Of a stretch of 64,000 bases of DNA, positions 9,036 to 63,512 are shown piece after piece (the stretch's first letter is position 1; each line of letters begins with the position of its first letter). Origin of the DNA: Parcubacteria group bacterium Gr01-1014_31 (GTDB lineage Bacteria > Patescibacteriota > Patescibacteriia > Buchananbacterales > GWA2-38-13). The notes beneath the pieces are model-generated. The model made no database searches, had not been told where the DNA came from, and saw only the letters and a program-made list of their open reading frames with translations. The position numbers and the translations under genes are program-made. The stretch covers positions 24,287 through 88,286 of the forward strand of contig VMFR01000007.1 in the NCBI GenBank assembly GCA_007376135.1, read 5' to 3'.

Positions 9036-11659
9036 ATGAAACAGGCTCAGACGATTTCGCGGGTGACCGCGTTCCTGGTGAGCGCTTTCTGTTTTACGGT
9101 GGCGCTCGGTCTGTTCGTGTATGCCGGCTCGGTCGTAGCGGCAAACTCGAACGGAAATACTAACAGCTCTCCGACGCCGACCCCCTCGGCCACGGCGACA
9201 CCAACACCGACGCCGACAGCCACGCCGACTCCGACGCCAACCGCTACCCCGACGCCGACGATTACCGTCACTTCCCCTAATGGCGGTGAGCAGTGGTTTC
9301 GTGGCAGCACGTACCGCATCACCTGGCAAATCAGTGGCAACGTACAGAGTGTGATTGTGCGGTATCTGAACACAGCCGGCAATTCCTGGGTTATCGCGCA
9401 GCTGGACGCGGCGCTGGGCGGCCACGACTGGACGGTGACAGAGGGTGTACCGACCGGCCTCTACCGCATCGAGGTGGCCGATGCCGTGTACAGCTCGCCG
9501 GTGAAAGACGCCAGTGATACTACGTTCAGTATTGTCGCGCCACCGGCGCCGAGTCCGTCACCTTCACCGACCGCGACGGCAACGCCCACGCCGACCCCGT
9601 CGCCTACGCCGACGCCAACCCCGACGGCGAGCCCGGCCTCTTCACCGGTTCCGACCGTATCGGCAACGCCGACCCCAGTTTCCAGTCCTACCCCGGGCGC
9701 CTCTGCGACCCCAACCCCAACCGCTACCCCCTGGCCAACGGTAACGCCATCGCCGCAACCATCGGCAACGCCGAGTCCGTCAACCAGCCCTCAGCCGACC
9801 GCTTCCGCGACGCCGACGATGACTCCTTCGCCGACCCTGATCCCGTTGTCCCCAACAGCCGGGTTCATTCGCGGCGATGCGAATGGCAATGGCGTCATTG
9901 ATATTTCCGATACGGTCCGCATTTTGGACTACAATGCGGGGCGTGCCACGCTGTCGTGCCTAGACGCCGCCGACGTCAATGACGACGGCACAATTTCCGG
10001 AGTCGACGCCGATGCGCTCCAGGGTTACTTATTCCTCGGCACGCACCCGGCGCCCCGTGCGCCGTTCCCGACCCGCGGTGCCGACCCCACAGCGGACCGC
10101 CTGGGTTGCAGCCAGGTGCCAAGCCGATTCACCCCCCTCGCTGGCGTGACTTTCTTGCGCGGTGACGCTGATGGTAACGGCCGCGTGGACCAGTCCGATA
10201 CCGTCCGGATCCTGGGCTACTTCAATGGTACCGGCCCGGCCCCGACCTGCCTGGACGCCGCCGACGTGGACGATGACGGCTGGGTCAGCCCGTTCGATGC
10301 CGCGCGCCTGCAGCGGTGGCTGTTCTTGGGCGGTGCGGCACCTGCAGCGCGACGCCGCGGCCTTCCGTTGCTCCGACTCCGACGAGTTCCCCTCGTCCGT
10401 TGCCCACCCCCGCCGCAGCGCCGACGATCACGCAGGTCGGACAGTTCCTCCGCGGTGATGCCAATGGCGATGGCAAGCTGGATATCTCCGATGCGGTCAC
10501 CATCAATACCATGATCCATCTGGGAGGTACAATCGCCTGTCTGGATGCGGCGGACGCGAATGACAATGGCGGCGTAACTTCGGCTGATGCCGACTATGTG
10601 CTCGCCTATCTGTTCCGCGGCGGGCCAGCGCCGGCCGCACCTTACCCCGCCAAGGGGAACGATTCGACCGCTGATAGTCTGAACTGCGGCGAACAGGGCG
10701 GTGGTGCTTCCGGCATCTCCTTCTTGCGCGGAGACGCGAACGCCGATGGCCGCGTGGACCAGTCCGATACGGTACGTATCAACGAGTACCTGAATGATCG
10801 CGGCAGCATCAGTTGTCTGGATGCCGCCGATACGAACGACGATGGCGTGGTCAGCACGATGGACGCCCGCGCGCTGCAGGGGTTCCTGTTCCTCGGCAGC
10901 TACCCGTCGCCGCGCCAGCCCTATCCGACGGTCGGTTTGGACACGACGACTGACGGCTTGGGATGCGCCGCGTACCGCGGCAGCGTCGCGCCAACACCAA
11001 GCGTAAGCCCTTCCCCCAGCGCATCACCGACGGTAAGCCCGACACCGAGCGGTTCGCCACAACCGTCCACGAGCCCGACGTCCAGCGCCTCGCCTGCGGT
11101 TTCGCCGACGCCCGCCCAGTCGCCGGTTCCTCCGGGCGCAACGGCGCTCTACATCCGCGGTGACGCCAACGGCAGCGGCGGATTGGATATCTCCGACACC
11201 GCCCGCATCTTGGATTACCTGGTTGGTCGCGCGTCGATCGCCTGCTTGGATGCCGCCGACGTCAATGATGACGGGCAGATCACCGACGCTGACGCCGATG
11301 CGATCCAGGGCTACCTGTTCCTCGGTACGCATCCGGCGCCCCGTGCGCCGTTCCCAACCCGAGGTGCCGACCCGACAGCGGATCAGCTTGGCTGCACGCA
11401 CGTGCCGTTCCGGCTGACCCCGCCAGCCGTGACCTTCCTGCGCGGCGATGCCGACGGCAGCGGCCGCATTGACCAGGCCGACACCCTGCGCATTTTGAAC
11501 TACTTCAACGGCATCGGCCCGGCCCCGACCTGTCTGGACGCCGCCGACGTGGACGATGACGGCTGGGTCAGCCCGTTCGATGCCGCGCGCCTGCAGCGGT
11601 GGCTGTTCTTGGGCGGTGCGGCACCTGCAGCGAGGACACCACTTTCTATCTTTCTATGA
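9036..11659 (+). CDS. Secreted multi-dockerin-like protein: signal peptide, Thr/Pro-linkers, a small beta-sandwich domain and six dockerin-type EF-hand-pair modules. The reading frame is broken by a 1-nt frameshift near 10347.
   Basis: Signal peptide [20 protein letters not shown]. Six repeats of GDANG.G..D.SD...IL.Y...G...[11 protein letters not shown]....D...L..YLF.G. The frame 0 to frame 2 switch is exactly where the second terminal module reads AAPAARTP. The 3' end overlaps the next gene by ATGA. Confidence 0.6.
10231..10350 (+). repeat. 120-bp near-identical intragenic repeat (copy 1 of 2; partner at 11513-11632)
   Basis: Direct comparison shows one mismatch over ~120 nt. The frameshift lies at the 3' edge of this copy. 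Confidence 0.8.
11513..11632 (+). repeat. 120-bp near-identical intragenic repeat (copy 2)
   Basis: See copy 1. Confidence 0.8.
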
Positions 11660-12987
11660 TGAGACGATTGCTCCGCCATCGTATTCCGAATTTTATCGTT
11701 GGTTGGTACCACTGGGGTTTGGCGCATTGGGCGAACATTTGGTACCGCCGGCCGTCGGAACGCCTGATGGTCATCGGTATCACGGGTACGTCAGGGAAGT
11801 CGACGGTCGCGGCGATGACCGTCGGCATTCTGGAAGACGCCGGGTATACGGTCGGCTTGGCGTCGACCATCAGTTTCAAAGTGGGAACGATCGAGCGTCC
11901 GAACGACACCAAAATGACGATGGTCGGGCGTTTCCAACTCCAGAAGTTGCTGGCGCAAATGGTGAAAGCCGGCTGTGATTTCGCGATCATTGAAACGACA
12001 TCGCTTGGCATTGCCCAGTCGCGGCATGTGGGCATTCACTACGACACGGCGGTGCTGACCAATCTGTACCCCGAGCATATTGATGCGCACGGGGGGTTTG
12101 AAAAATACGTCGCGGCCAAGCGCGAGCTGTTTTCTCACCTCCAGCGCTTGCCGCACAAGACGATCGCCGGTATGCGGATCCCCAAGACCATCATCGTCAA
12201 CCTTGATGTGGCGCGATCATCTGAGTTTCTTGCATCCCTCGTGGATAAAAAGATCGGCGTGACGACGAAGGCGCGCTACGATATTTCCGGCGTCGAGGAG
12301 CTGCGCGGGGAGGTTTTACACAATGCGGGCCGCGTGGGTGTGCGGGTGCTGGGCGAGGATCTGTGGCTTGCTCTGCACGGCGAGCATAACGCGGAAAACG
12401 CCCTGCTCGCTGCGGCGATCGCCCGCGCTCATGGGGTGTCCTGGACGCACGTGCGCAGCGGTCTAGCCAGTCTGGCTGCACTGCCGGGACGCATCGAACG
12501 CGTGGATGCCGGCCAGCCCTTTACCGTCATTGTCGACTATGCGTTCGAACCGGTCGCGATGGAAAAATTGTATACGGTCGTTTCCGCGTTGCCGCATCGG
12601 CGGGTGTTGCAGGTGCTCGGAACGACCGGCGGCGGACGCGACCGCGATCGTGGCGAGGTGCTCGGCCGGATGGCCGGACGTTTCGCCGATTACGTCGTTG
12701 CCACCAACGAAGACCCCTACGATGATGATCCCGCAATGCTGGCAAGCCGCGTGGTGCGCGGCGCCCAGGCCGAGGGGAAGACGCTCGGGAAGGACCTGCT
12801 CTTTGAACTTGATCGTCGTCGTGCGATCCGTCTGGCCCTGCGGGAAGCAAAAGCTGCTGACGTCGTGCTGGTGACTGGAAAGGGAAGTGAACAGGCCATG
12901 GTGGTGGTGGGGAATAAGAAGGTACCGTGGGATGACCGCGCAGTTATTCGGGAGGAAATTTCCACCCTCATTTCACAAGCTCGATAG
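11656..12987 (+). CDS. Mur-ligase-family protein, MurE-like (UDP-MurNAc-tripeptide synthetase-like) with a short N-terminal domain
   Basis: P-loop VIGITGTSGKST, TNLYPEHIDAHGG (cf. MurE TNLSRDHLDYHG), DYAFEP (cf. DYAHTP), and a C-terminal Mur-ligase domain. Start MMRRLL overlaps the upstream stop. Confidence 0.7.
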   Translation: MMRRLLRHRIPNFIVGWYHWGLAHWANIWYRRPSERLMVIGITGTSGKSTVAAMTVGILEDAGYTVGLASTISFKVGTIERPNDTKMTMVGRFQLQKLLAQMVKAGCDFAIIETTSLGIAQSRHVGIHYDTAVLTNLYPEHIDAHGGFEKYVAAKRELFSHLQRLPHKTIAGMRIPKTIIVNLDVARSSEFLASLVDKKIGVTTKARYDISGVEELRGEVLHNAGRVGVRVLGEDLWLALHGEHNAENALLAAAIARAHGVSWTHVRSGLASLAALPGRIERVDAGQPFTVIVDYAFEPVAMEKLYTVVSALPHRRVLQVLGTTGGGRDRDRGEVLGRMAGRFADYVVATNEDPYDDDPAMLASRVVRGAQAEGKTLGKDLLFELDRRRAIRLALREAKAADVVLVTGKGSEQAMVVVGNKKVPWDDRAVIREEISTLISQAR

Positions 12988-13088
12988 CGTGCCGCGGTGT
13001 GGATAACCATAGAGGTGAGGTATATTTTGTTTTCGTTGAGCAAAAAAACGTTTTTTTGTTTTCCACAGTGTTTATGGTCTCCCGGGAT

Positions 13089-52841: not shown

Positions 52842-53075
52842 CTAGGGCTTGCAGTGGGTGCAGGCGTAGCGGTCCCCTTGGGGGGTATCCGTTTTGGCCG
52901 CCGGCCGACCGCAAAGGGCGCACTTCACCGCGGGGCACCCGTGGCAGGTGACGATCTTGTGGCCAAAGAGCGCGACTGCGCCATTCATGCACAGCGTGCT
53001 TTTGCCGCACGTCGGGCAAGTGTCGCCGCCATTGAGGCGGACGGACGGGAAGGTGGAACCAGCCCATCCAGGCAT
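52842..53075 (-). CDS. Small double zinc-ribbon protein (4 x CxxC, ~77 aa)
   Basis: CPTC...CHGC...CALC...CTHC. GGAGGT lies 7 nt upstream of the ATG at 53075. Own terminator downstream. Confidence 0.5.
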   Translation of the reverse strand: MPGWAGSTFPSVRLNGGDTCPTCGKSTLCMNGAVALFGHKIVTCHGCPAVKCALCGRPAAKTDTPQGDRYACTHCKP

Positions 53076-53122
53076 CAGCGTAACCTCCAAAAAGAGCTCC
53101 CAAAGAGCAGTAGTAAGGCAAC

Positions 53123-53172
53123 AAAAAACTTCCCGTCCTCTGCCGACAAAAAATGCCGGAAGGGGACGGGAA
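53123..53172 (-). terminator. Strong Rho-independent terminator (10-bp GC stem followed by U6)
   Basis: Minus strand reads CUUCCCGUCC...GGACGGGAAG UUUUUU. Confidence 0.65.
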
Positions 53173-53450
53173 GCTAGGCTTACCGCGGTACCACCCCATT
53201 GCACCCCCGAAGGGGTCTTACTGGCGCTGTCCGCCGACACTCACCCTCGTACAGAGAGATCGGCGCGATACCAGTTTGCCTATGGTTACGGAGGCTTGCC
53301 GGACTCCCACCTGTGCCGCCATCTTGGCGGTGCAAGCAGGAGCCACCGTGTCCCGCTCTTTCCGCGAAAGGGCGAGGCTGCGTCTGGCCCAACCCTCCGA
53401 CGTACGTCGGAGGACCAGCGCATCGGTGTTGCAGTTTTTAAGGTGTGAAA
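53173..53450 (-). ncRNA. Candidate structured ncRNA (~280 nt), identity unresolved. Some RNase-P-RNA-like words.
   Basis: No credible ORF. GC-rich nested hairpins. Ends in its own terminator. Minus-strand words GGGAGUCCGGC...CCAUAGGCAAAC and GAGGGUGA...GUAAGA resemble the RNase P CR-I and CR-II regions, but the spacing is too short for the canonical type A RNA. Confidence 0.3.
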
Positions 53451-53585
53451 CCAATACTACTGAAGCTTCCATAAGATGTCAAGAGCTTTTTTAGGGTAAA
53501 ATTATTTCCTGTGAATAACTGGTTTTTTTGTTTCAGTTGAGGCTAAAATTGTGGTGTGAAAATGGCAAATACTGGCCTTTTTCCA

Positions 53586-53614
53586 TTGACTGTTTTCCAT
53601 AATTGCGATATAAT
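53586..53614 (+). promoter_or_regulatory. Sigma70 promoter TTGACT-17-TATAAT
   Basis: Near-consensus hexamers. ~210-nt AT-rich leader to the ATG at 53826. Confidence 0.55.
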
Positions 53615-53825
53615 ACCTATAGGCAATATATTCGCATCTTTGACAGGGGAATAGGCAAAAATAAAAACCAAATGAGCCGCGTCTGTTGCGCAGGTTTGCG
53701 CCCAGAAAGATTCGGCGAAGTTTCGTACGGTATTACGGCTTCATTTGGTGAAAGCCGTTTTATTGTGCCTGGCGCTCCCTTTCCACGAAGTAACTATCAT
53801 TATCAAAAAAATAAAAACAAAAAAT

Positions 53826-54641
53826 ATGGATAAGCAGCAGTTCCGGGTTCGCGACCTGACCAAAGCGGTTGACCGCGACAAAACCACCCTGCTGCGGTGG
53901 GAAAAGTTAGGCCTGATCCCGGCCGCCAAACGCGACAGCCGCGGCTGGCGTTACTACACGGCGGATGATTTTACCAGCATCGTACAGCGGGTAAGGGAAT
54001 CCAATTTTTTCCGCCGCGGCGCGGTGCTGCCGATTTTGGCGCTGGTCGCGTCCAGTTTCATGACTGTGGGCCTGCTGAAGTTCACGCGCTACGCGTACGG
54101 CAACGCCGACCTAAACATGAACTTGAACATCGCCGCCGGGACGCTCAGTGTGACGGCATCCACCACGGTGGAAACGTTCGGCACGGTCACCTACAGTTTC
54201 TCCAGTCAGACGACGACTTCCGCCAACGTGGAATCGGTGCGGGTGCAGGATGCCCGCGGCGGCGCCGGGAACTGGACCTTTAACGTCAGCTGCGCCGACA
54301 ACGCTGCGGGGTGTTACTGGTCCGGGTCGACGGAAAAGGACCGGTTCCAGCTGGATTCCGACATGACGTCGTTCGATCCGGCGTCCACCTCGGGCAAACT
54401 GTGCATCAATATGACGGCTGGCGGCGGGTACCGGTGCCTGTCCAACGGCGGCGACGCCTGCACGGAAGTGACCTTGACGACCGCCTACCGCTGCTACAGT
54501 GCGAGCACGGACATTACCGCAGCGACGGGTGCGAGCGCGAATGGCGACTACTATTTGGCAGAATGGGACTGGGACCAGGGTATCCCTGGCCGAGCGTCAG
54601 CATCCGTGTACACGACCATCATCACCTACGACTTGCAATAA
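53826..54641 (+). CDS. Membrane-anchored MerR-type transcriptional regulator with an extracytoplasmic beta-rich domain shared with the giant protein at 56708-63058
   Basis: MerR HTH FRVRDLTKAVDRDKTTLLRWEKLGLIP...RGWRYYTADDF. TM helix AVLPILALVASSFMTVGLL. C-terminus ...GDYYLAEWDWDQGIPGRASASVYTTIITYDLQ. Confidence 0.7.
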   Translation: MDKQQFRVRDLTKAVDRDKTTLLRWEKLGLIPAAKRDSRGWRYYTADDFTSIVQRVRESNFFRRGAVLPILALVASSFMTVGLLKFTRYAYGNADLNMNLNIAAGTLSVTASTTVETFGTVTYSFSSQTTTSANVESVRVQDARGGAGNWTFNVSCADNAAGCYWSGSTEKDRFQLDSDMTSFDPASTSGKLCINMTAGGGYRCLSNGGDACTEVTLTTAYRCYSASTDITAATGASANGDYYLAEWDWDQGIPGRASASVYTTIITYDLQ

Positions 54642-54777
54642 TTAGCCTGATTGAGGCAAAAAAGAACACCGCCGAACGGCGGTGTTCTTTTTTTGTGAGG
54701 GAAAACTATCCCCACCGTTTTTGTTTCCCGCCGGATGGTTTTTTTTGGTATACTGAAGGCGTAGTTTTTTAGTTTTT

Positions 54778-56586
54778 TTGGCTATGCTTTCATCCGCCGG
54801 CCGAAGCGCTCGCCGCACTGTTGGTGGGGTTTTATTTTTTGCCTTGACGGCATGGACGCTGGCGGCGGTGGTCCCGGCCCTGGCGCTCAGTCTCGGCGGG
54901 GTCGGCATCCGGCCGGCGCGGCCAAAGCCGCCGGATGTCGGGTGGTTTATCTATCAGCTCAAGCCCGGTGAAAGCACGACGGACGCGGTGCTCGTTTCCA
55001 ACGAAACGGCTGTTGAGCAGATGCTGCAATTGGCCGCGGTGGACTATGAGCCGACCGACATCGGCGCGTTCGGCCTGAAGGGTTCGACGGATCCGCAAAC
55101 GGACATCGGTAAATGGGTGCAGTTGTCCACGACGACGTTCAGTTTGCCGCCAGGGAAGGTCCGCGAGGTGGATTTTACGCTGACCATCCCGCTTGATGCG
55201 GATGTCGGCGAGCACGCGGGGGCAATCGTGGTGCAGCCGACGGCCGTCGCGCGGTCGTCCCAGGTATCGGGCGCGTACATCACCACGCGCGTCGGAGCGC
55301 GCATCTACAACACGGTGCCCGGTGAGCTGGTGCGCAAGATCAAGCTGCTGGGGTTTCTGATGCATGAGGATAAAAAGACGCAGCACTACGAATTCGTGGT
55401 CCAGGGGAAGAATGAAGGGAATGTGTCGGTATCGCCCCGACTGCGGCTGCATTTGAACGGTTGGGGGCTGGTCAAGGTGCCGCCCGTGGGCGATGCAGAG
55501 CTCGCGGATTTTCCCGGGTTTGCGCTGTTCGGATTCCAGCGTTTTCTGCCGAAGGAGCTGTCCAATAACTGGCAGCTGGCGCGGGGAGCGACCGTGGAGA
55601 CGTATTTCCGTTGGCGCAAGCCGTGGTTAGGCAGGTTTTCCGCCTACTTGACGTTGGAGTACGAGCGCAAGACTGGAGAACCGGAGGTTATCCGCAGCGA
55701 AACGTTCAAATTCATGGTGCTGCCATGGCCGGCAACTGGGTATTTCCTCGGGGCGATGGCGCTCCTTCTCGCGCTCATTACCGTTTGGATCGTCTGGCGC
55801 CGCATTAAGTTCTCCGGCCGTGGATGGCAGAAGTACACGGTCAAAGCCGGCGATACGCTGACGGTCGTGGCCGCGCGCTGCCGCTTGTCCTGGAAGCATC
55901 TGGCCAAGGTGAATAAGTTGAAGAAACCGTACGTCATTTCCGCCGGGGACAGTATTCTGGTGCCGCCGGGGACAAAGCTCGCAACGGAAAAGCCGGGCGA
56001 GAAGCCGGCCGGCAAAGAGGATAGCCCGGCGATGGCAGAAAAAATACCGGCGGTGAAGCGTCCACGGGTTCCCCGCTGGGTAACGCTGACGGCCATCGGG
56101 GTCGTGAGCGCGTTCCTGGTTGCGCTTGCCGGGTTCCTGCTGTTCCGCTCGATGGTGCAGCCGCCGGAAGGGAACCCTCCGCTGACGCCGACTCCGCAAG
56201 AATCACCGAAGGAAAATCTGCCCCCGGCGCAGCCTGCGACCAGCACGCCGTCCGTACCCGCGGCGGCGACCACCACCCCCGCGGTCGGGGCACTGGCCAA
56301 GGATGCGATGATCGTTTCCGTGCTCAATGGCAGCGGCATCGCGGGGCTGGCTGGTGCCGTCGTTGATGAGCTGCGTGCGGCCGGCTACCGCGAGTTGTCC
56401 GCGGGTAATGCCGACGCGTTCAGCTATGAGGGGGCGACCATCCGCTACCGTCCGGGATTACGGGGGGCAGCCGAGGACGTCCAGACCGTGCTGCGGGTGC
56501 GGTACGAGAAATTCACGCTGGAGGAGAAGGCCATGACGACGACCACGGATGTAGTCATCATTCTCGGAAAACCGGTCACACCGTAA
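54778..56586 (+). CDS. Membrane protein with N-terminal extracytoplasmic domain, LysM domain between two TM helices, Pro/Thr linker and C-terminal LytR_C domain
   Basis: Signal or anchor VLFFALTAWTLAAVVPALA. LysM YTVKAGDTLTVVAARCRLSWKHLAKVNKL...ISAGDSILVP. LytR_C VSVLNGSGIAGLAGAVVDELRAAGY...VIILG. The N-terminal domain may be DUF916-like (unverified). Confidence 0.65.
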   Translation: MAMLSSAGRSARRTVGGVLFFALTAWTLAAVVPALALSLGGVGIRPARPKPPDVGWFIYQLKPGESTTDAVLVSNETAVEQMLQLAAVDYEPTDIGAFGLKGSTDPQTDIGKWVQLSTTTFSLPPGKVREVDFTLTIPLDADVGEHAGAIVVQPTAVARSSQVSGAYITTRVGARIYNTVPGELVRKIKLLGFLMHEDKKTQHYEFVVQGKNEGNVSVSPRLRLHLNGWGLVKVPPVGDAELADFPGFALFGFQRFLPKELSNNWQLARGATVETYFRWRKPWLGRFSAYLTLEYERKTGEPEVIRSETFKFMVLPWPATGYFLGAMALLLALITVWIVWRRIKFSGRGWQKYTVKAGDTLTVVAARCRLSWKHLAKVNKLKKPYVISAGDSILVPPGTKLATEKPGEKPAGKEDSPAMAEKIPAVKRPRVPRWVTLTAIGVVSAFLVALAGFLLFRSMVQPPEGNPPLTPTPQESPKENLPPAQPATSTPSVPAAATTTPAVGALAKDAMIVSVLNGSGIAGLAGAVVDELRAAGYRELSAGNADAFSYEGATIRYRPGLRGAAEDVQTVLRVRYEKFTLEEKAMTTTTDVVIILGKPVTP

Positions 56587-56707
56587 TTCGCCAGCCGCCC
56601 ATGGCGCACGGGGTTGGCATGACGATCGGCGCACCGCGACTCGCCGGCTGCCGTTACCGCCTCTAACTTTGCCGGCTGTTTCCCGTTGCGGTTCCCTTTT
56701 TGACCCC

Positions 56708-59700
56708 ATGCATCGGCGCTATCGAACTTTGCTGCTTGGAGTTCTGGGCATCCTCGCCTTGAGCGCGGCGGCGCGGTTTTCCGATTCTCGCCCGCACGCC
56801 ACCCAAGGCGCGGAGGAGCGTGAAGTGGCGACCAGCTACCGGGCCTACCGCGGCAAACTCGTTGCCGCGCAGAACGTTATGCGCGAGCATCCTCGGGCGC
56901 AGGAGGCGGTGTTTCGGGTCGCCAATCGCAATGACGCGGAGGCGCGCGGATTGTTGAACGTGAAAAAGTTCGACCTGGGCGCCGCCCAGAAGCGGTATCT
57001 CTTTTTCCCCGGACACATCAACTACGTTGATGAGCAAGGAACGGTGGTCGAGGCCGATCCGACGTTCATTGTTCGGCCGGACGGCGCCTACGCTATGACC
57101 AAGGCCGGCTATCAGGTTTTAGCACCGCAGTTTGCCGACGGCGTGCTGGAATTCACCGTGGATGGCGCCACAGTGACGTTCCGGGCGCTGGGTCTTGGCA
57201 CCAGCACGCCCGCGACCGTGCCCCACGTGCAGGGCATCCCGCAGGAAAATCGCGTCATTTACCCCGACGCGTTCGGGGTGGGTATTGACTACGTCATCCA
57301 GGCTGAATCTGACGAGCTGAGAAAATTGGTGGTGTTCCGTACGCCGCCGGTGCAGGATTTCGACCTGCGGGTGGAATTTGCAACGTCGCTTGGCGACAGC
57401 GGCACCATTCGCGGCCGCAACACCAAGTTCGGCGCAACCTTCTTCCGCCAGCCGACCATCTGGGACAGCGCGGGTAAACAGCTGCCCATCACCGTGGAGC
57501 TGTCCGGCGGCAAAATGACCAAGGTGCTGCCCGCATCGTTCTTCGCGGCGTCGCCGGAATTCCCGCTCCAGTACCCGGTGATGACCGACGTGACCACCAG
57601 CTACTACGCGGGCGCGGGCGATGGCTACGTCTACTATTCGCTGGAGTTCGAGAGCAACTGGGATACGGCGCACCACGATATCGGTACGAACGCGACGGCC
57701 AACTACACCGGCACCACCGGCCAGATTGCTTCACAGGCCGATTCGGGCGGGTATAAGCCGATGCGCGCCTTTTTTCCCATTGACACCTCCGGTATAGCCA
57801 ACTCGGACGAGATCACCGCCGTCCGGCTGAAGTTGTACGCCACCGCCAAAACGAACAGCGATAACGACGGCAACGACTACATCAACGTCGTGCAAACGAC
57901 CCAGGCGGACACCGCTTCATTGGTCGCCGCCGATTTTGACACCTGCGGTTCGATCCACAGCCCGACGACCGGCGCTACATCGGTGGATATCGGCAATATC
58001 ACGACTACCGCCTATAATACGCTGACGCTCAACTCCACGGGTCAGGGCTGGATCAGCAAGACCGGTACGACGCAGCTGGGCGCGCGCGAGGGGCATGATC
58101 TGGCTGATGACATTCCCGGCAGTACCAACAGCGTGACCTTTAGCACCTCGGAAGAGACCGGCACGAGCCAGGACCCGGTTTTGGAGGTGGACACCACGGC
58201 CGCGACCATCACTTCGGTGTCGCGGAAGAACGACGACGGCCGCGAGGTGTTTGCTACCAGCACCGAGAACATCGATGTTTCCACCATCTTTGTCGGCGAG
58301 ACGGCCGGCAACACCACCATCGAGTACGTCATTTTCATGGACCTGGACGGCGACAACGCGCCGGATACCAACGAGACGTACGTGACCAACAACTGCGCCG
58401 GTTCTGCCGCCTGGAGCACGAACAACTACACCCACCAGACTGCCAATTTCACCATTGCCGATGGGTCCAGCCCCAAGACCGATACGTGGACCTGCAGCAC
58501 CACCAGTTTTCCCGAGGAGAACGGCGTCTACAAGGTCTACGTCAAGTGGTACGACGGCGCCGGCACCATCTCGTCTACCGGCACGCCCAGTTTCCAGTTC
58601 TGCGACCAGCCGACCGGCGAGGGCAGCTGGTGGGATTCCAGCTGGGAGAACAGGACGCTGATTTCCTTCCGCTCCTCCACCTTCAGCGAAGCGCTCGTCA
58701 ATTTTCCGGTGCTGGTGAAAGCGACCTCCACGAATTTCGGGTTTGACGACCCCGACTCCTCGGCGGAAGACGTGCGGTTCACCGACGAGGATGCCAGTAC
58801 CTTGCTGAACTTCGAGCGTGAGTACTACGATGCGACCACGACCAAGGAAGCTTACTTCTGGGTGCAGGTGCCAAAGATCGCGACCTCCACGGACTGCGAT
58901 TACGTCTTCATGTACTACGACAAGGCAGGTGCAACGGATGCCGCCAGCACCACCGCCACCTGGCGGCAGGACTACTATGAAGCCGTCTGGCACTTCGGGG
59001 AGTATGCGACGACCAGTGCAACCACCTACAGTTTTCAGGACGGAGTTTTGCCGGATGCCAGCTACAACGCCACCGAAGACCTGAACCTGGAATCGGGCAC
59101 GCCGACCACCAACCAGAATGCCGACACGACCATCCAGGTGGATGTGCTGTCCTGCGCCGGCGGGGCCGGGGACTGCCACGCGCTGCTGCAGTGGGATATC
59201 AGCAGCATCCCAGCATCCTGCACGGTGTCCAGCGGCAGCATCAACATCAACGTGTCCAACCTATCGGCCGACCGCTACGGCATCTATGGCGTACGGCGCA
59301 ACTGGGGGGAAACCACCGCAACGTGGAACACCTACGACGGCAGCAACAATTGGACGACCGCTGGCGCCATTGATACCACCAACGACCGTTTCGCCACTGA
59401 CTTAATGAATAGCAATGCTGATGGCGGCTGGGGGAGCGGCAGCACCGGTTCCATTACCCACGCTTTTGACTCCGACGGCGTTTCCTTCCTCAACGATCTC
59501 ATTGACGGAGTGACCACCAACAACGGTTTTGTCATCATGGACCACGATTCGACCGACGATGACGGCTACGCGTGGGCCTACGAGGGTAACGCGACGGCCA
59601 CCAACCGCCCCAAGCTGACGGTGGTCTGCGGCGGCGGGACCGAGCCCGTCTACCTGGACTCCACCTCCAACAACCACGATGAGACGAACAGCAGCATCGC

Positions 59701-62700
59701 TTCCCGCCGGGAAAAGGCGCAGAGCAAGTTCGGCTACTCGCCGAAATTCGACGGCTCCACTTCGGTGCTCGGCATCCCCGATTCCAACGGCTTTGACATC
59801 ACCAGCTACACCCTGACGGGGTGGTTCCGTCGGGACGGCACCGGCGACCCAGTCACCATGTCCTTGAGCCAAACCATGGAACCGATCATTGCTAAGGGCT
59901 ACGCCGAGGCCGACACGCAGGCCGCCGACATCCAGTATTCGGCCGGGTTCAACCGCTCCGGCCAGTCGACGCTTGCCGGAAACTGGGAAGACGACCGCCA
60001 TGCGGCAGGCAACGACTGGTCCACCCTTGGCGGTACCACCATTGCCAACAGCGTCTGGCGGCATTTCGCGACGCGCCTGAAGGATAAGGCGATCTTCAAC
60101 CTATACCTGGACGGCTTTGCCAATAACACCACGACCTACCCCATTAACCAGGGCGCCAGCACCGGTGGCACGATGAAGCTGGGCATCGGGACGGCCTACA
60201 ACACCGGCGGCACCTCGGACGGAAAATGGAACGGGTACTTGGATGAACTGCGGGTGTACAAGGTGGCGGTCGCGACCTCAACGGCGTCCAACGAATCGGA
60301 ATGGCTGCGCGCTGAGTGGTACACGGCCGACAATGGCATGGTCGAGTGGGGCACCGAAGCGACAACCACTGCGTCGGTTTCCATTTCGTCGGCGGCCAAC
60401 CAAACGTTCGTGGTAAACCAGTCGACCACGGCCATTTCCACCATCAGCATCACCGAGGGGACGTCCCCCTCAATCACCGACGCCAACAACATCCGCATCC
60501 GCATCCCTTCCACCTTCAACATGGTGTTCTATACATCCGACACGGCCGCTAATATCGGCGGCAGCGATTGGGCGAAAACCGGAGCGATATCGCAAGGAGG
60601 TGAGGTGGCGGTGGCCTATGAGGACAGCAATAAAACCGTCGTGGTGCCGGTCACGTCCAATTTTTCCGCGCAGGACGATATTACCGTCTATGGCTTGTCG
60701 TTCACCAGCTTCACGGCGGTGTCCGGCTCCGACAATTTGGAGCTGGAAGTGGATAACGGAGGCACCATCGCCGATACCGATGACAAGACCATCGAGATCG
60801 TCGCGCCCACACTCTCGTCGTACGCCAGCCAGACGTTCACCGTCAGCCAGGCGATGACCACCAGCTCGCCGATGACCATCACTGACGCCTCCTCGGCCAC
60901 CATCACCAACACCAGCAACATCCGCATTAGGATCCCGACGGGGTTCAATATGGTGTGGGACACCGCTGATACCATCATCAAGGTGGCCCCAACCCTGGCC
61001 GACTACACCAGCTTCTACAGCACCAACGACCTGCCAACCGTGACCATTGACGTTTCCGACGTTACCTATAACACCACGACCGATACCCTTTTTATTGTTA
61101 TCAATGGCACGCCGACCATTTATGAGTACACGTTAGGCGGCAGCCTTAGCCGGACCATCAACATGAACGGGTTCATTGATACCGAAGGTATTGACTGGAT
61201 GTACGGCAACCAGTACGTGCTGACCGAGGAGCGTTCCCCCTACGATGTCATCGTCGTTACGCTGGATAGCTCGACGACCACCTTGGCCAAGAGTGAGGGG
61301 ACCGTGATCGACGTCGGCTTCACCTGTACCACGAACCTGTGCCTGGAGGGCATCCGCTATGACGTGGCGAACGACTGGTTCTACGCTGTTACGGAAAAGC
61401 AGGCCGGCGGCGGCAACGGCGGCCGTGTCTTTCGGATCAACAACGACGCGACGTACACCGAGTTCACGGACCTGGGAACGGCGCTCAGCAATGCGGGCTA
61501 CACGGACTTGGCGTCGCTGGCCTACGACGAGGTGACCAAGGACCTGTTCCTGCTGTCGCAGGAGAACAGCATCATCATCCAGGCGACCACCACCGGGACC
61601 ATCCGGGGCACGCGCGCCGTGGATACCGGTATCTTTACCCAGCCGGAGGGGCTGGAATTTTCCTCGAACTACGACTCGATGTTCATCGTCGGCGAGCCCG
61701 ACGACTACCAGCGGTTGACGCGCGCCAGCAAGATCAACAACACCGCCACGTTCGAGGACTCCAGCAAGACCCTGGTTTTGGATGTTACCAGCGACTTCAC
61801 TGCGAGCGAGACCCGGACCATCGGCTTCGTGTCGTTCAAGAGTTTCACCGCATCCTCTGCCGCGGACAACCTGGAATTGGAGGTAACCAACGACGCCAAT
61901 ATCCAGGACTACGACGACAAAACCATTACCATTACCGGCGGGGCATCGCTGGCGGTGACGGCCTCCACCACGGTGCTGGCGTTCCCGGTAACTTCGTACA
62001 ATTTTTCGTCCCAAACCACGACCGCGACGAACGCCGCGCAGGGGTCGGCCTACATCACCGGCGGCAGCGGTACGTGGACGCTGAACCTGAACTGCAACGC
62101 CAGCGGCCAGGGCTGCTACTGGTACGGGCCCGGGACGCGCAGCTACTCATTCCAGGACGGCGTGTCGCCAACTGCGGGCTACGCGGGTACTGAGGACGTC
62201 AATATCAAGGCTGACGGCGCCAGCACGAACTACAACGGCGATACGGTCAACTGCGTGGACTACAACGGCGACGGCTGCCAGACGCCGGCCACGGGCATCC
62301 ATCGCGTGCTGATGCAGTGGGATATCAGCTCGATCAGCACGGATTGCACGGTTTCCGGCGCCAGCGTTACGGTCAATAACGAGATCACCAACGGCGATTC
62401 TATACACCGTTTCGGCGTCTACGCCTTGCGGCGCAACTGGGGCGAGGGTACGGTCACCTGGAATACCTATGACGGCAGCAACAACTGGTCAACGGCGGGC
62501 GCCGGAGATACTTCCAACGATCGCTACAGTACCGATCTGATGGACGGCAACAGCGACGGCGGCTGGGGCCGCGCTGTCCAGGGCACCCTGACCTTTGATT
62601 TTGACAGCGACGGCGTGGCGCAAGTGCAACAGTGGATCGATGGCACCGTGGTCAATAACGGCATCATTGTTCAGGACAACGATGTCGGCGATACGAATGC

Positions 62701-63058
62701 CTTTATCTGGCAAACGCAGGAGAATGCGACGGCGGCCTTGCGCCCTCGCCTCACGGTCCATTGCAAGAAGAATAGTTTCCGGCTGCGCGGCGGGCTGGTG
62801 CCGGCGGATGTTCCCTCCACGACCGGTATCTTCTGCATCACCGATCCGTTCACCTGTAATGTGCAGGGCGGCGGTTCGTGCACCGGGGTCACCCTGGTCG
62901 GTGCCGGTTGCATCGGCGGTTCCAGTACGAAGACCGTCGCGACCGGTTCTGGCGCCAGCTCGAACTACTGGCTGAAGGAAGCGGACTGGGCGCAGGGGAT
63001 ACCCGGCGGAACTTCGACGGGGGTCTACACCACAGTCATCACGTGGGACCTGCAGTAA
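56708..63058 (+). CDS. Giant (2117 aa) secreted modular surface protein with duplicated beta-sandwich and lectin-like modules. Its C-terminal domain is homologous to the ectodomain of the MerR-TM regulator.
   Basis: Signal MHRRYRTLLLGVLGILALSAAA. A ~230-aa module is duplicated (YSFQDGV...QWDISSI...RRNWGE..TWNTYDGSNNW..AG...RPKLTV). Short repeated NIRIRIP..FNMV modules. C-terminus ...SSNYWLKEADWAQGIPGGTSTGVYTTVITWDLQ. Confidence 0.75.
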   Translation: MHRRYRTLLLGVLGILALSAAARFSDSRPHATQGAEEREVATSYRAYRGKLVAAQNVMREHPRAQEAVFRVANRNDAEARGLLNVKKFDLGAAQKRYLFFPGHINYVDEQGTVVEADPTFIVRPDGAYAMTKAGYQVLAPQFADGVLEFTVDGATVTFRALGLGTSTPATVPHVQGIPQENRVIYPDAFGVGIDYVIQAESDELRKLVVFRTPPVQDFDLRVEFATSLGDSGTIRGRNTKFGATFFRQPTIWDSAGKQLPITVELSGGKMTKVLPASFFAASPEFPLQYPVMTDVTTSYYAGAGDGYVYYSLEFESNWDTAHHDIGTNATANYTGTTGQIASQADSGGYKPMRAFFPIDTSGIANSDEITAVRLKLYATAKTNSDNDGNDYINVVQTTQADTASLVAADFDTCGSIHSPTTGATSVDIGNITTTAYNTLTLNSTGQGWISKTGTTQLGAREGHDLADDIPGSTNSVTFSTSEETGTSQDPVLEVDTTAATITSVSRKNDDGREVFATSTENIDVSTIFVGETAGNTTIEYVIFMDLDGDNAPDTNETYVTNNCAGSAAWSTNNYTHQTANFTIADGSSPKTDTWTCSTTSFPEENGVYKVYVKWYDGAGTISSTGTPSFQFCDQPTGEGSWWDSSWENRTLISFRSSTFSEALVNFPVLVKATSTNFGFDDPDSSAEDVRFTDEDASTLLNFEREYYDATTTKEAYFWVQVPKIATSTDCDYVFMYYDKAGATDAASTTATWRQDYYEAVWHFGEYATTSATTYSFQDGVLPDASYNATEDLNLESGTPTTNQNADTTIQVDVLSCAGGAGDCHALLQWDISSIPASCTVSSGSININVSNLSADRYGIYGVRRNWGETTATWNTYDGSNNWTTAGAIDTTNDRFATDLMNSNADGGWGSGSTGSITHAFDSDGVSFLNDLIDGVTTNNGFVIMDHDSTDDDGYAWAYEGNATATNRPKLTVVCGGGTEPVYLDSTSNNHDETNSSIASRREKAQSKFGYSPKFDGSTSVLGIPDSNGFDITSYTLTGWFRRDGTGDPVTMSLSQTMEPIIAKGYAEADTQAADIQYSAGFNRSGQSTLAGNWEDDRHAAGNDWSTLGGTTIANSVWRHFATRLKDKAIFNLYLDGFANNTTTYPINQGASTGGTMKLGIGTAYNTGGTSDGKWNGYLDELRVYKVAVATSTASNESEWLRAEWYTADNGMVEWGTEATTTASVSISSAANQTFVVNQSTTAISTISITEGTSPSITDANNIRIRIPSTFNMVFYTSDTAANIGGSDWAKTGAISQGGEVAVAYEDSNKTVVVPVTSNFSAQDDITVYGLSFTSFTAVSGSDNLELEVDNGGTIADTDDKTIEIVAPTLSSYASQTFTVSQAMTTSSPMTITDASSATITNTSNIRIRIPTGFNMVWDTADTIIKVAPTLADYTSFYSTNDLPTVTIDVSDVTYNTTTDTLFIVINGTPTIYEYTLGGSLSRTINMNGFIDTEGIDWMYGNQYVLTEERSPYDVIVVTLDSSTTTLAKSEGTVIDVGFTCTTNLCLEGIRYDVANDWFYAVTEKQAGGGNGGRVFRINNDATYTEFTDLGTALSNAGYTDLASLAYDEVTKDLFLLSQENSIIIQATTTGTIRGTRAVDTGIFTQPEGLEFSSNYDSMFIVGEPDDYQRLTRASKINNTATFEDSSKTLVLDVTSDFTASETRTIGFVSFKSFTASSAADNLELEVTNDANIQDYDDKTITITGGASLAVTASTTVLAFPVTSYNFSSQTTTATNAAQGSAYITGGSGTWTLNLNCNASGQGCYWYGPGTRSYSFQDGVSPTAGYAGTEDVNIKADGASTNYNGDTVNCVDYNGDGCQTPATGIHRVLMQWDISSISTDCTVSGASVTVNNEITNGDSIHRFGVYALRRNWGEGTVTWNTYDGSNNWSTAGAGDTSNDRYSTDLMDGNSDGGWGRAVQGTLTFDFDSDGVAQVQQWIDGTVVNNGIIVQDNDVGDTNAFIWQTQENATAALRPRLTVHCKKNSFRLRGGLVPADVPSTTGIFCITDPFTCNVQGGGSCTGVTLVGAGCIGGSSTKTVATGSGASSNYWLKEADWAQGIPGGTSTGVYTTVITWDLQ

Positions 63059-63162: not shown

Positions 63163-63512
63163 ATGAAGTATGATTTAGAGGAGAGGACTCAAAAGTTCGG
63201 TGAAGATATCATTGAATTTGCAAAAGTCATTCCGAGAAATATCATTACGATTCCTCTCATTAGCCAGCTCGTTAGTGCAGGCATAAGTATCGGGGCGAAC
63301 TATTGTGAAGCAACGGGAGCGAGTTCCAGAAAAGATTTTAGAAACAAGATATTTATTTGCAAAAAGGAAGCTCAAGAAAAAAACACTGGCTAAGAATGGT
63401 GGTTAAAGCCGTTCCTGAAATACGGGATAAAGCTAGAAAGCTTTGGCGGGAAGCGCAAGAGTTGACCCTGATTTTTAATAAGATTACCTCAAGTTCGAAA
63501 AAATTGGATTGA
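63163..63512 (+). pseudogene. Four-helix-bundle protein (rRNA-IVS-type protein family) interrupted by a frameshift in an A7 run at 63377-63383
   Basis: Frame 1 encodes ...ISIGANYCEATGASSRKDFRNKIFICKKEAQEK. Frame 0 continues KHWLRMVVKAVPE...ELTLIFNKIT. The two frames meet at the gaaaaaaac homopolymer. Confidence 0.55.

Follow-up and report, generated by a model that had tools for sequence, protein, structure and literature searches.

A MerR-type helix-turn-helix fused through a membrane anchor to a divergent WxL domain: a candidate one-component regulator in a surface-protein cluster of Patescibacteria

What would a bacterium do with a protein that begins as a MerR-type helix-turn-helix (HTH), crosses the membrane once, and ends in a relative of the domain that closes a giant surface protein encoded two genes away? 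This question is raised by a locus in Parcubacteria group bacterium Gr01-1014_31 (GCA_007376135.1, contig VMFR01000007.1), an ultra-small organism from groundwater. We analysed a window of 64,000 nt from this contig, and all coordinates below refer to the window unless a locus is named. The locus at 53826-63058 contains three consecutive genes on the + strand, which we call A, B, and C. Their products are identical to TSC75651.1, TSC75652.1, and TSC75653.1 of the Gr01-1014_31 metagenome-assembled genome, and NCBI labels each of them "hypothetical protein." A preliminary description of this DNA had placed three open reading frames (ORFs) here, and we find them at the same positions, with lengths of 271 and 2116 amino acids (aa) for A and C. 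We think that the best explanation of A, with a probability of about one half, is a one-component regulator that spans the membrane and whose outer part belongs, as a subunit, to the very complex that it controls. The three genes are:

53826..54641, + strand: gene A (TSC75651.1, 271 aa), with a MerR-type winged HTH (53844-54011), a transmembrane (TM) helix (54018-54083), and a divergent WxL domain (54108-54638)

54784..56586, + strand: gene B (TSC75652.1, 600 aa from the ATG at 54784), WxLIP-like with LysM and LytR_C; in order, an N-terminal signal or TM segment, a WxLIP_PGBD-like domain (54937-55236), a putative second beta domain, a TM helix (55729-55806), LysM (55834-55965), a TM helix (56068-56160), and LytR_C (56314-56571)

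56708..63058, + strand: gene C (TSC75653.1, 2116 aa), with a signal peptide, DUF2341, DNRLRE copy 1 (59024-59629), an SdiA-regulated beta-propeller, and a split WxL domain (N-terminal half 61925-62140, DNRLRE copy 2 62141-62764, C-terminal half 62765-63055)

The N-terminal part of protein A (aa 7-49) matches Pfam's MerR_1 at 23.4 bits, with a cut-off of 21.6, and MerR at 26.4 bits. A profile of this HTH has MerR from Bacillus megaterium (4ua1) as its closest solved sequence (E = 2.9e-6), with the helix-turn-helix, the wing, and alpha3 all aligned. All 33 members of the A family that we compared have a MerR or MerR_1 match in Pfam. Across these 33 homologues, the HTH is the most conserved part of the protein: its mean pairwise identity is 0.61, whereas the ectodomain reaches 0.44 and the TM segment 0.23. 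It includes the near-invariant string DRDKTTxLRWExxGxIPxAxRDSRGWRYY, and the basic residues of the MerR signature are invariant.

Protein A has a single hydrophobic segment at aa 65-86 (20-22 residues; Kyte-Doolittle hydropathy of 2.2), and AlphaFold2 (AF2) models a continuous helix at 63-90. The 33 homologues have a net charge of +2.3 in the 12 residues before this segment and +0.4 in the 12 residues after it. In paralogues, homologues of the ectodomain sit behind N-termini that resemble signal peptides. Given the charge bias, the hydropathy, the AF2 helix, and these paralogues, an N-in/C-out topology with a cytoplasmic DNA-binding domain is a well-supported prediction. Pfam, hydropathy, AF2, and charge bias also agree with the architecture in the preliminary description, which was a MerR HTH, one TM helix, and an ectodomain of ~175 aa.

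The same description had aligned this ectodomain with the last module of C, and formal alignments bear it out. Using BLASTP with composition adjustment, A170-271 and C2020-2116 are 44% identical (E = 1e-19), and A~105-170 is similar to C~1745-1812 (E = 2e-14); the two blocks are collinear. A hidden Markov model (HMM) of the A family matches C in two pieces (HMM positions 6-84 and 76-175), which abut at about position 80. Conserved Cys, Trp, and Gly columns and the clean split of the HMM match also back the homology. We consider A's architecture and its homology to C to be confirmed, as far as sequence comparison goes, and to be far beyond chance.

The two blocks of C are separated by 208 aa (C1812-2019) that are 51% identical to C773-974 (E = 4e-59). 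The preliminary description had reported a duplicated, lectin-like insert of ~210 aa. The insertion and the duplication stand, and the module itself is a DNRLRE domain (NCBIfam NF033679, 4.6e-32). In a multiple alignment, the insertion point falls between 'GCYW.G' and '.K..F.L'. A 1091-aa protein from another locus (L004) ends in the same domain, unsplit. The AF2 model of C's split C-terminus has a pLDDT (AF2's confidence score) of 54, which is too low to judge whether the halves reassemble.

By its sequence, the domain that A and C share is a divergent member of the WxL superfamily rather than a canonical one. We base this identification on Pfam matches, on profile searches, on the motifs of protein C, and on the WxLIP-like neighbor. 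Pfam's WxL family (PF13731) is matched by 20 of the 33 A-family members (best 1.2e-5). A word-seeded search with a profile of the ectodomain retrieves proteins that are annotated with PF13731. An exhaustive HMMER scan with this profile against 1.84 billion representatives found only 92 relatives, and bona fide WxL proteins make up 12 of the 47 weakest hits (best 6.5e-19). Among the 92 representatives, the domain lies at the extreme C-terminus (nearly all of the full-length hits end within ~15 residues of it), and the proteins are either 185-285 aa or 400-2196 aa long. Protein C has the dual motif (W1790-T-L and W2113-D-L), and many homologues of A carry WTL...WDL. The sensor domain had been called adhesin-derived. 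We disagree: it is not an adhesin tip, and a divergent WxL domain would be a module for docking to the wall or to WxLIP.

Protein B had been described as a LysM/LytR_C protein that lies between the other two genes. Both domains are there (LysM, 1.4e-9; LytR_C, 1.9e-13), and we add that B is the WxLIP-like component of the cluster. B itself matches WxLIP_PGBD (DUF916) with an E-value of 3.2e-5 and 24.4 bits, which is under the cut-off of 27.3 bits; in the family of B (c2, defined by BLAST), 34 of 43 members match, with a best E-value of 6.7e-10. In Pfam, neither B nor its relatives have a match to DUF3324 (HBD). An unassigned stretch of ~150 aa lies between the PGBD-like domain and the TM helix at aa 318-343, which is followed, atypically, by LysM, a second TM helix, and LytR_C.

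WxL/Csc clusters are known from Lactobacillales, Listeria, and Enterococcus, where the small WxL protein is CscB/Swp, the large one is CscC/Lwp, and WxLIP is CscA/DUF916-DUF3324 (PMC1534035, PMC9772566, PMC10599100). Over 91% of the known WxL sequences come from Firmicutes, and the Firmicute model predicts that a beta-hairpin from the PGBD of WxLIP is inserted into the WxL domain, beside its N-terminal strand (PMC10599100, PMC9772566). By the published definition, a WxL cluster has one or more WxLIP genes and two or more WxL genes, of which one is small and another large, all within four genes (PMC10599100). Our locus has A as the small WxL, B as WxLIP, and C as the large WxL in consecutive genes, and it is a WxL cluster in this sense only if A counts as a small WxL protein.

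The resemblance extends further. As in the Firmicutes, a small protein and a large one each carry a WxL domain at the very C-terminus, the DUF916/WxLIP_PGBD protein has a TM helix, the genes are adjacent on the same strand, the large protein strings together beta-rich domains with a putative role in binding, and the dual W-x-L motif is kept in C. The differences are also clear. The phylum is Patescibacteria, and the WxL and WxLIP matches in Pfam of the window's own proteins are weak or sub-threshold. A has a cytoplasmic MerR HTH and a TM anchor and no signal peptide. B is fused to LysM and LytR_C and has no DUF3324 match, there is no LPXTG (CscD) gene, and C's WxL domain is interrupted by DNRLRE.

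We propose with high confidence, from these domain and gene-order comparisons, that the locus is the Patescibacteria version of the Firmicute WxL/Csc surface cluster. We are similarly confident that C corresponds to the "large WxL," a giant surface protein whose C-terminal WxL domain would dock at the cell wall; that B is a WxLIP-like membrane protein extended by LysM and LytR_C; and that A occupies the slot of the "small WxL," with a cytoplasmic MerR-type winged HTH and a membrane anchor in place of the cleavable signal peptide.

Does the fusion in A recur? The preliminary description had suggested a search for MerR-TM proteins with this domain in other genomes, and it was productive: the HTH-TM-WxL layout is found in at least 50 clusters (at 90% identity), as uninterrupted ORFs of 267-298 aa from independent assemblies. 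The hosts belong to several classes of the Candidate Phyla Radiation (CPR), namely Parcubacteria, Komeilibacteria, Buchananbacteria, and unclassified Patescibacteria. A WxLIP-like gene lies downstream of the A-type gene in 13/13 loci with enough downstream sequence. Two loci (L003 and L008) have tandem copies of the A-type gene, and in loci of the Komeilibacteria type, A is accompanied by one or two close paralogues that have the TM segment and the ectodomain without the HTH.

The HTH also occurs by itself. It is found in 645 clusters at E ≤ 1e-8 (~100 bits against an HMM that we built), and the best-scoring 120 are nearly all standalone proteins of 65-73 aa, which end where A's TM helix begins (..YFR). 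The sequences that we fetched around standalone HTH genes show an adjoining gene of another family (c1) in about 20 of 26 loci, and in at least 12 they include genes of the WxLIP-like c2 family. This parallel type of cluster has the order giant protein, HTH, secreted c1 proteins of ~365 aa, and two to three WxLIP-like proteins. The c1 proteins share the C-terminal region of the giant protein. We considered whether they are WxL-like and rejected this (hhalign probability of 1% and nothing in Pfam). The fusion in A is thus a "Rosetta stone" link which argues, at the level of sequence, that the cluster-associated mini-HTH and the WxL complex work together. In other loci (L019, L025, L032, L034, L036, L040, and L050), the HTH is joined via a long linker and a TM helix to large outer regions of unrelated kinds, which suggests that MerR-like proteins tethered to the membrane form a wider family in CPR bacteria.

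How would A and its neighbors be expressed? The signals around gene A are:

53586..53614, + strand: promoter P_A, TTGACT-17-TATAAT, which has 11/12 consensus positions

53615..53649, + strand: start-of-transcript block ACCTATAGGCA, with the palindrome CCTATAGG (53617-53624) and then TTGACAG (53640-53646), as invariant alignment columns

53654..53679, + strand: A-rich box GGCAAAAATAAAAACCAAATGAGCCG, whose 3' part is predicted to form the 5' strand of an antiterminator

53735..53765, + strand: putative intrinsic terminator (attenuator) in the leader, ACGGCTTC-ATTTGGTG-AAAGCCGT followed by TTTTATTG

53804..53825, + strand: A-rich translation-initiation region with no Shine-Dalgarno sequence, which includes a second copy of AAATAAAAAC

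54659..54695, + strand: strong intrinsic terminator after A, with a GC-rich stem of ~14 bp and T7

54706..54754, + strand: P_B region, with block CTATCCCCACCG (54706-54717), extended -10 TGGTATACT (54746-54754), and no -35 consensus

The -35 and -10 boxes of P_A are kept in four relatives (L051, L007, L052, and L053), and near-consensus promoters with a 17-bp spacer lie upstream of almost all of the homologous HTH genes. The same four relatives have a different GC-rich hairpin with a T-run at the same place after A. The block of P_B and its TGGTATACT are kept in L052 and L053, with TGCTATACT in L051. A near-consensus promoter at 53586 had been proposed for the locus as a whole. It is near-consensus and conserved, but given the leader, the terminator after A, and P_B, it is not a simple driver of all three genes. 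Since A has its own promoter, leader, and terminator, while B has its own extended -10 promoter, A appears to be a separate, tightly controlled transcription unit.

The block at 53615-53649 is a candidate operator or a candidate 5' RNA element. In the wider HTH family, two to five tandem TATAGYRC octamers stand at +1 to +35 behind near-consensus promoters. Strict tandem TATAGYRC occurs 39 times in 665 kb, versus 4 expected, and 37 of these are in HTH or c1 promoters. A high tandem-octamer score is found in 26/43 HTH promoters versus 2/276 other promoter-like sites (p = 1.5e-16). These repeats are our best operator candidate for the HTH. At the standalone HTH genes of L016-L047 (for instance L017, L024, and L044), the octamers come right after TTGACC-17-TATAAT and form GTACTATAGTAC palindromes, and octamers are near-exclusive to the promoters of HTH genes and of the adjacent c1 genes. 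The leaders of the standalone HTH genes are 300-540 nt long and contain no ORF.

The leader of A is predicted to be a terminator/antiterminator switch. L051, L007, L052, and L053 keep the hairpin and its T-run, with compensatory changes, and 12/15 A-type loci have them overall. An exact complement of 8-12 nt lies 46-67 nt upstream of the terminator arm, also in 12/15 loci. In the window, CCAAATGA is complementary to the terminator's 5' arm and loop TCATTTGG. The sequences of the pair vary by lineage (CCAAATGA/TCATTTGG, CGCCAAAATAAA/TTTATTTTGGCG, and AATAAAGCAAA/TTTGCTTTATT). The summed complementarity of the leaders is 109, versus 50 expected, and 0 of 1000 dinucleotide shuffles reach it. According to RNAfold, leaders that are cut before the 3' arm form the box:arm helix in 10/12 cases, and full-length leaders are split between the terminator and antiterminator states. 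Rfam has no family for the leader of A, nor for the long ones that precede standalone HTH genes.

We also considered whether the A-rich box encodes a leader peptide (an upstream ORF). We rejected this, as the ATG is not kept in close relatives (AAAUGA versus AAAAGGA). RNA pairing explains the change in this box, because the A/U change co-varies with the hairpin loop in relatives. The window contains just two exact copies of AAATAAAAAC, both 5' of A. Of the HTH genes, 54% have A-rich 10-mers such as AAAACAAAAA in the 300 nt upstream, compared with 5% of control genes, and an A-rich stretch directly abuts the ATG in most of the listed loci.

These observations can be compared with known regulators. 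A membrane-spanning MerR protein had been described as unusual. It is uncommon, but "unusual" should be toned down, because a 2023 survey of transmembrane transcription regulators counts 386 MerR and 350 MerR_1 proteins, or ~1.5% of the regulators surveyed (PMC10269533, supplementary file 4). WxL is not among the domains that the survey lists (PMC10269533). Transmembrane MerR proteins have thus already been catalogued, and what is new is the combination with a WxL ectodomain in CPR bacteria. In our literature search, we found no paper that links WxL to Patescibacteria, and no description of a MerR-TM-WxL fusion, of a WxL/WxLIP cluster in CPR bacteria, of a cluster-associated mini-HTH, or of the attenuator.

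Like ToxR, TcpP, CadC, and BcrR, A is one chain that begins with a predicted DNA-binding domain in the cytoplasm, crosses the membrane by a single TM helix, and continues into an extracytoplasmic domain. Unlike them, its DNA-binding domain is a minimal MerR winged HTH, not of the OmpR or XRE type, and its outer domain is a structural subunit, paralogous to a neighbor's anchoring domain, instead of a sensor of small molecules or pH. A shares the HTH-wing-alpha3 fold and the sequence signature of MerR, CueR, BmrR, and TipA, although it is tethered to the membrane and lacks some of their other features (see below). The standalone 70-aa HTH resembles minimal proteins of the BldC/Xis type, which bind repeated sites; BldC, the excisionases and AlpA, RacA, and GlnR/TnrA form the comparison set for a minimal MerR fold. 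RwpL of Lactobacillus plantarum, a small protein made up of an HTH only, directly controls the gene of a WxL adhesin and binds downstream of where transcription begins (PMC13522541). RwpL is a soluble 19.7-kDa receptor for c-di-AMP of the MarR type, with no homology to A's HTH and no fusion to WxL, and we rejected it as a relative of A.

We propose that A works as a single-pass transmembrane transcription regulator with a logic like that of ToxR, CadC, or BcrR. On the outside, its WxL domain would join the WxLIP/peptidoglycan docking platform that the terminal domain of C would also use. On the inside, an HTH of ~62 aa without a dimerisation helix would bind DNA stably only when assembly of the complex brings the ectodomains together or releases them. 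The output would be control of A's own strong promoter, with its operator candidates at +1, and/or of the B-C promoter that lacks a -35 box. Production of the surface complex would then track its state of assembly, and the terminator/antiterminator leader in front of A would add a second layer of control. Our candidates for the DNA sites of A are the +1 repeats, the A-rich box, and the P_B block. We have moderate confidence in this mechanism, which we infer from domains, homology, topology, linkage, and signals, and in which the docking of A with B, the DNA binding, and the target are the conjectural steps. The feedback or contact-sensing circuit of the preliminary description is plausible, being compatible with the linkage, the conservation of the HTH, and the standalone HTH in related clusters.

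A bolder version can be stated: that Patescibacteria have a dedicated, nearly invariant MerR-like mini-regulator of ~65 aa for their WxLIP clusters; that in several lineages it was fused via an anchor to a small WxL protein; and that DNA binding inside these ultra-small episymbionts is gated directly when the giant host-attachment protein docks or when the host's wall is contacted, giving a one-protein sensor with a new leader and tandem-octamer operators. We consider this full version to be unlikely, and offer it as speculation.

Several observations weigh against a regulator that acts from the membrane. The HTH of A lacks the coiled-coil dimerisation helix and the effector-binding region of MerR proteins, and its MerR_1 match ends at model position 43 of 69, with the TM helix starting at aa 63-65. 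The over-long spacer of 19-20 bp that is typical for MerR is absent too: P_A has 17 bp, and P_B is an extended -10 promoter without a -35 box. Given the 17-bp spacer and the missing coiled-coil, we reject classic MerR activation by spacer distortion. The window's subfamily keeps just one TATAGYRC unit and scores 7-8 of 14. Since the attenuator is conserved, A must be under the control of some other factor as well. Protein A alone matches Pfam's WxL with E = 0.052 (14 bits versus a cut-off of 25), its W-x-L motifs are degenerate (W150-T-F and Y268-D-L), and the AF2 model of its ectodomain is of moderate confidence (pLDDT 65-89). Also, a near-invariant Ala after the TM segment, in the context A-x-G/S|N, could mark a signal-peptidase site, and cleavage there would separate the two halves of the protein.

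If A is cleaved, then the signal might be secretion rather than contact. Signal peptidase would cut at A90-Y-G92|N93 and free an ordinary small WxL protein to the wall, and intramembrane proteolysis would free the HTH-TM stub as a soluble regulator of ~70-90 aa, which would report the flux of WxL export. The near-invariant Ala, small residues at -3 and -1, and a conserved N at +1 across the 33 homologues would fit such a site, as would the Komeilibacteria paralogues without an HTH and the free ~70-aa form, which is the commonest form of the HTH. Small WxL proteins of Firmicutes also carry cleaved signal peptides (PMC10599100). On the other hand, a hydrophobic segment of 20-22 residues is typical of anchors that stay uncleaved, position -1 is N or E in several members, and we identified no protease gene in the locus. 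We view release by cleavage as improbable, though it deserves to be kept in mind.

The HTH might instead be a handle. A would then be an anchored small WxL protein whose MerR fold binds a cytoplasmic protein, or the nucleoid non-specifically, and so positions the complex. There are precedents: MerR-fold domains can bind proteins rather than DNA (CbpM and DafA, which bind chaperones), and RacA anchors DNA. RodZ has the same three-part topology and is associated with the envelope; its XRE-type HTH, which has no homology to that of A, binds MreB and not DNA, so an HTH-TM-ectodomain protein need not be a regulator. The lack of a dimerisation helix fits this explanation, and so does the occurrence of the HTH-TM unit on quite different outer regions (in L019, L025, L032, L034, L036, and L040). 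But the DNA-contact signature T-L-x-R-W-E...R-D-S-R-G-W-R-Y-Y is invariant and aligns to a DNA-binding MerR, and the free form of 70 aa, which has a strong promoter of its own and tandem repeats specific to that promoter type, has the look of a DNA-binding protein under autoregulation and not of a tether. A purely structural role thus seems rather doubtful to us, a little more so than cleavage. Finally, the fusion could be mis-called or mis-assembled, and the similarity to C could reflect low-complexity Thr/Ser composition. Standalone HTH genes and HTH-less small WxL-like genes do both exist, and the sequences are rich in Ser, Thr, and Ala. However, an artefact of assembly or fusion is refuted by the uninterrupted ORF, which recurs in at least 50 clusters across several CPR classes and independent assemblies. 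The BLASTP similarity of 1e-19 is composition-adjusted, Cys, Trp, and Gly columns are conserved, and the HMM match splits cleanly, so we give this explanation almost no credence.

We made other observations about these families and their loci. In B, LysM lies between two predicted TM helices (55729-56160, aa 318-461); if the WxLIP module is outside the cell, then LysM would be cytoplasmic, which is odd for a peptidoglycan-binding domain. In Komeilibacteria (L001), the equivalent of B is split into a WxLIP+LysM gene and a TM+LytR_C gene. An IS200/IS605-type Y1 transposase gene lies between the B homologue and the giant gene in L051 (7018-7650) and L052 (3238-3873) and is absent from the window. 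The second type of CPR cluster (L016-L047) encodes a ~3000-aa protein and two ~365-aa secreted proteins (for instance L024:3-9464, 10234-11331, and 11597-12613). These share a C-terminal domain with the motif '...AGDYQNTLTYICTP(I/T)(F/Y)', with no Pfam match and no detectable WxL similarity; it nevertheless has WxLIP-like and HTH neighbors, and it may play the part of WxL as an analogue. Two tandem copies of the HTH are present in L036, and several HTH-TM fusions outside the A type share a '(N)LTDADIPD.(I/L)T...Y' motif.

We also examined the flanks of the locus. The "gap" of 1 kb upstream of A does not belong to the system, being taken up by a probable divergent T-box leader and a Zn-ribbon ORF that are part of a divergent trpS unit. 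A strongly conserved, GC-rich structured RNA with a terminator lies between trpS and A (53113-53450, - strand); this Parcubacterium thus probably has a divergent T-box leader there. The T-box core AAUGGGGUGGUACCGCG is perfect at 53200-53184, with an Rfam T-box score of 20.9 bits (E = 0.023) that is far under the gathering score of 93. A candidate for the T-box's specifier codon is UGG in the window, but relatives have UGA at the same position. A minus-strand promoter (TTGACA-17-TAGTAT, 53482-53454) precedes the RNA, and the Zn-ribbon ORF and trpS follow it. This ORF (52842-53075, - strand) encodes 77 aa, is rich in Cys, has a GGAGG ribosome-binding site, and lies between the T-box leader and trpS; L051 has an equivalent start region, where no gene is called.

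53500..53530: stretch upstream of P_A that contains TTATTCACA

The 9-mer TTATCCACA, which is identical to a DnaA box, occurs in the window at 53510-53518 and at 12998-13006, both on the - strand. It occurs 53 times in 665 kb of Patescibacteria loci (L003-L053; ~5 expected), and 45 of 51 classified hits (from 46 loci) are intergenic. It is mostly 8-30 nt upstream of a -35 hexamer, and it is enriched upstream of HTH genes (23/38 regions versus 22/230). We do not claim that TTATCCACA is an operator of the HTH, since other operons have it too and, within the window, it points to the trpS/T-box promoter. DnaA might act there as a promoter factor, or the site might serve another abundant regulator. 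After gene C, a low-GC, truncated ORF (63163-63393, + strand, 76 aa) resembles the four-helix-bundle protein of 23S-rRNA intervening sequences, and L004 has a 124-aa PF05635 gene immediately after its homologous large WxL-like gene.

CPR bacteria (Patescibacteria) are mostly uncultivated episymbionts with very few recognisable regulators, and their giant surface proteins presumably mediate attachment to the host. Our analysis extends the WxL/WxLIP system of surface complexes, which has been treated as a Firmicute trait, to these bacteria. It also indicates that a conserved regulator-like module, free or fused, travels with their WxLIP clusters, in genes that are now labelled "hypothetical" or "MerR family." The locus offers concrete cis-elements to work with: a consensus promoter, the tandem octamers at +1, and the switch between A-box and terminator. 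If the HTH does bind DNA from the membrane, then this would be a minimal system for surface assembly or contact sensing, with two to three proteins, whose reconstitution in a heterologous host would be feasible.

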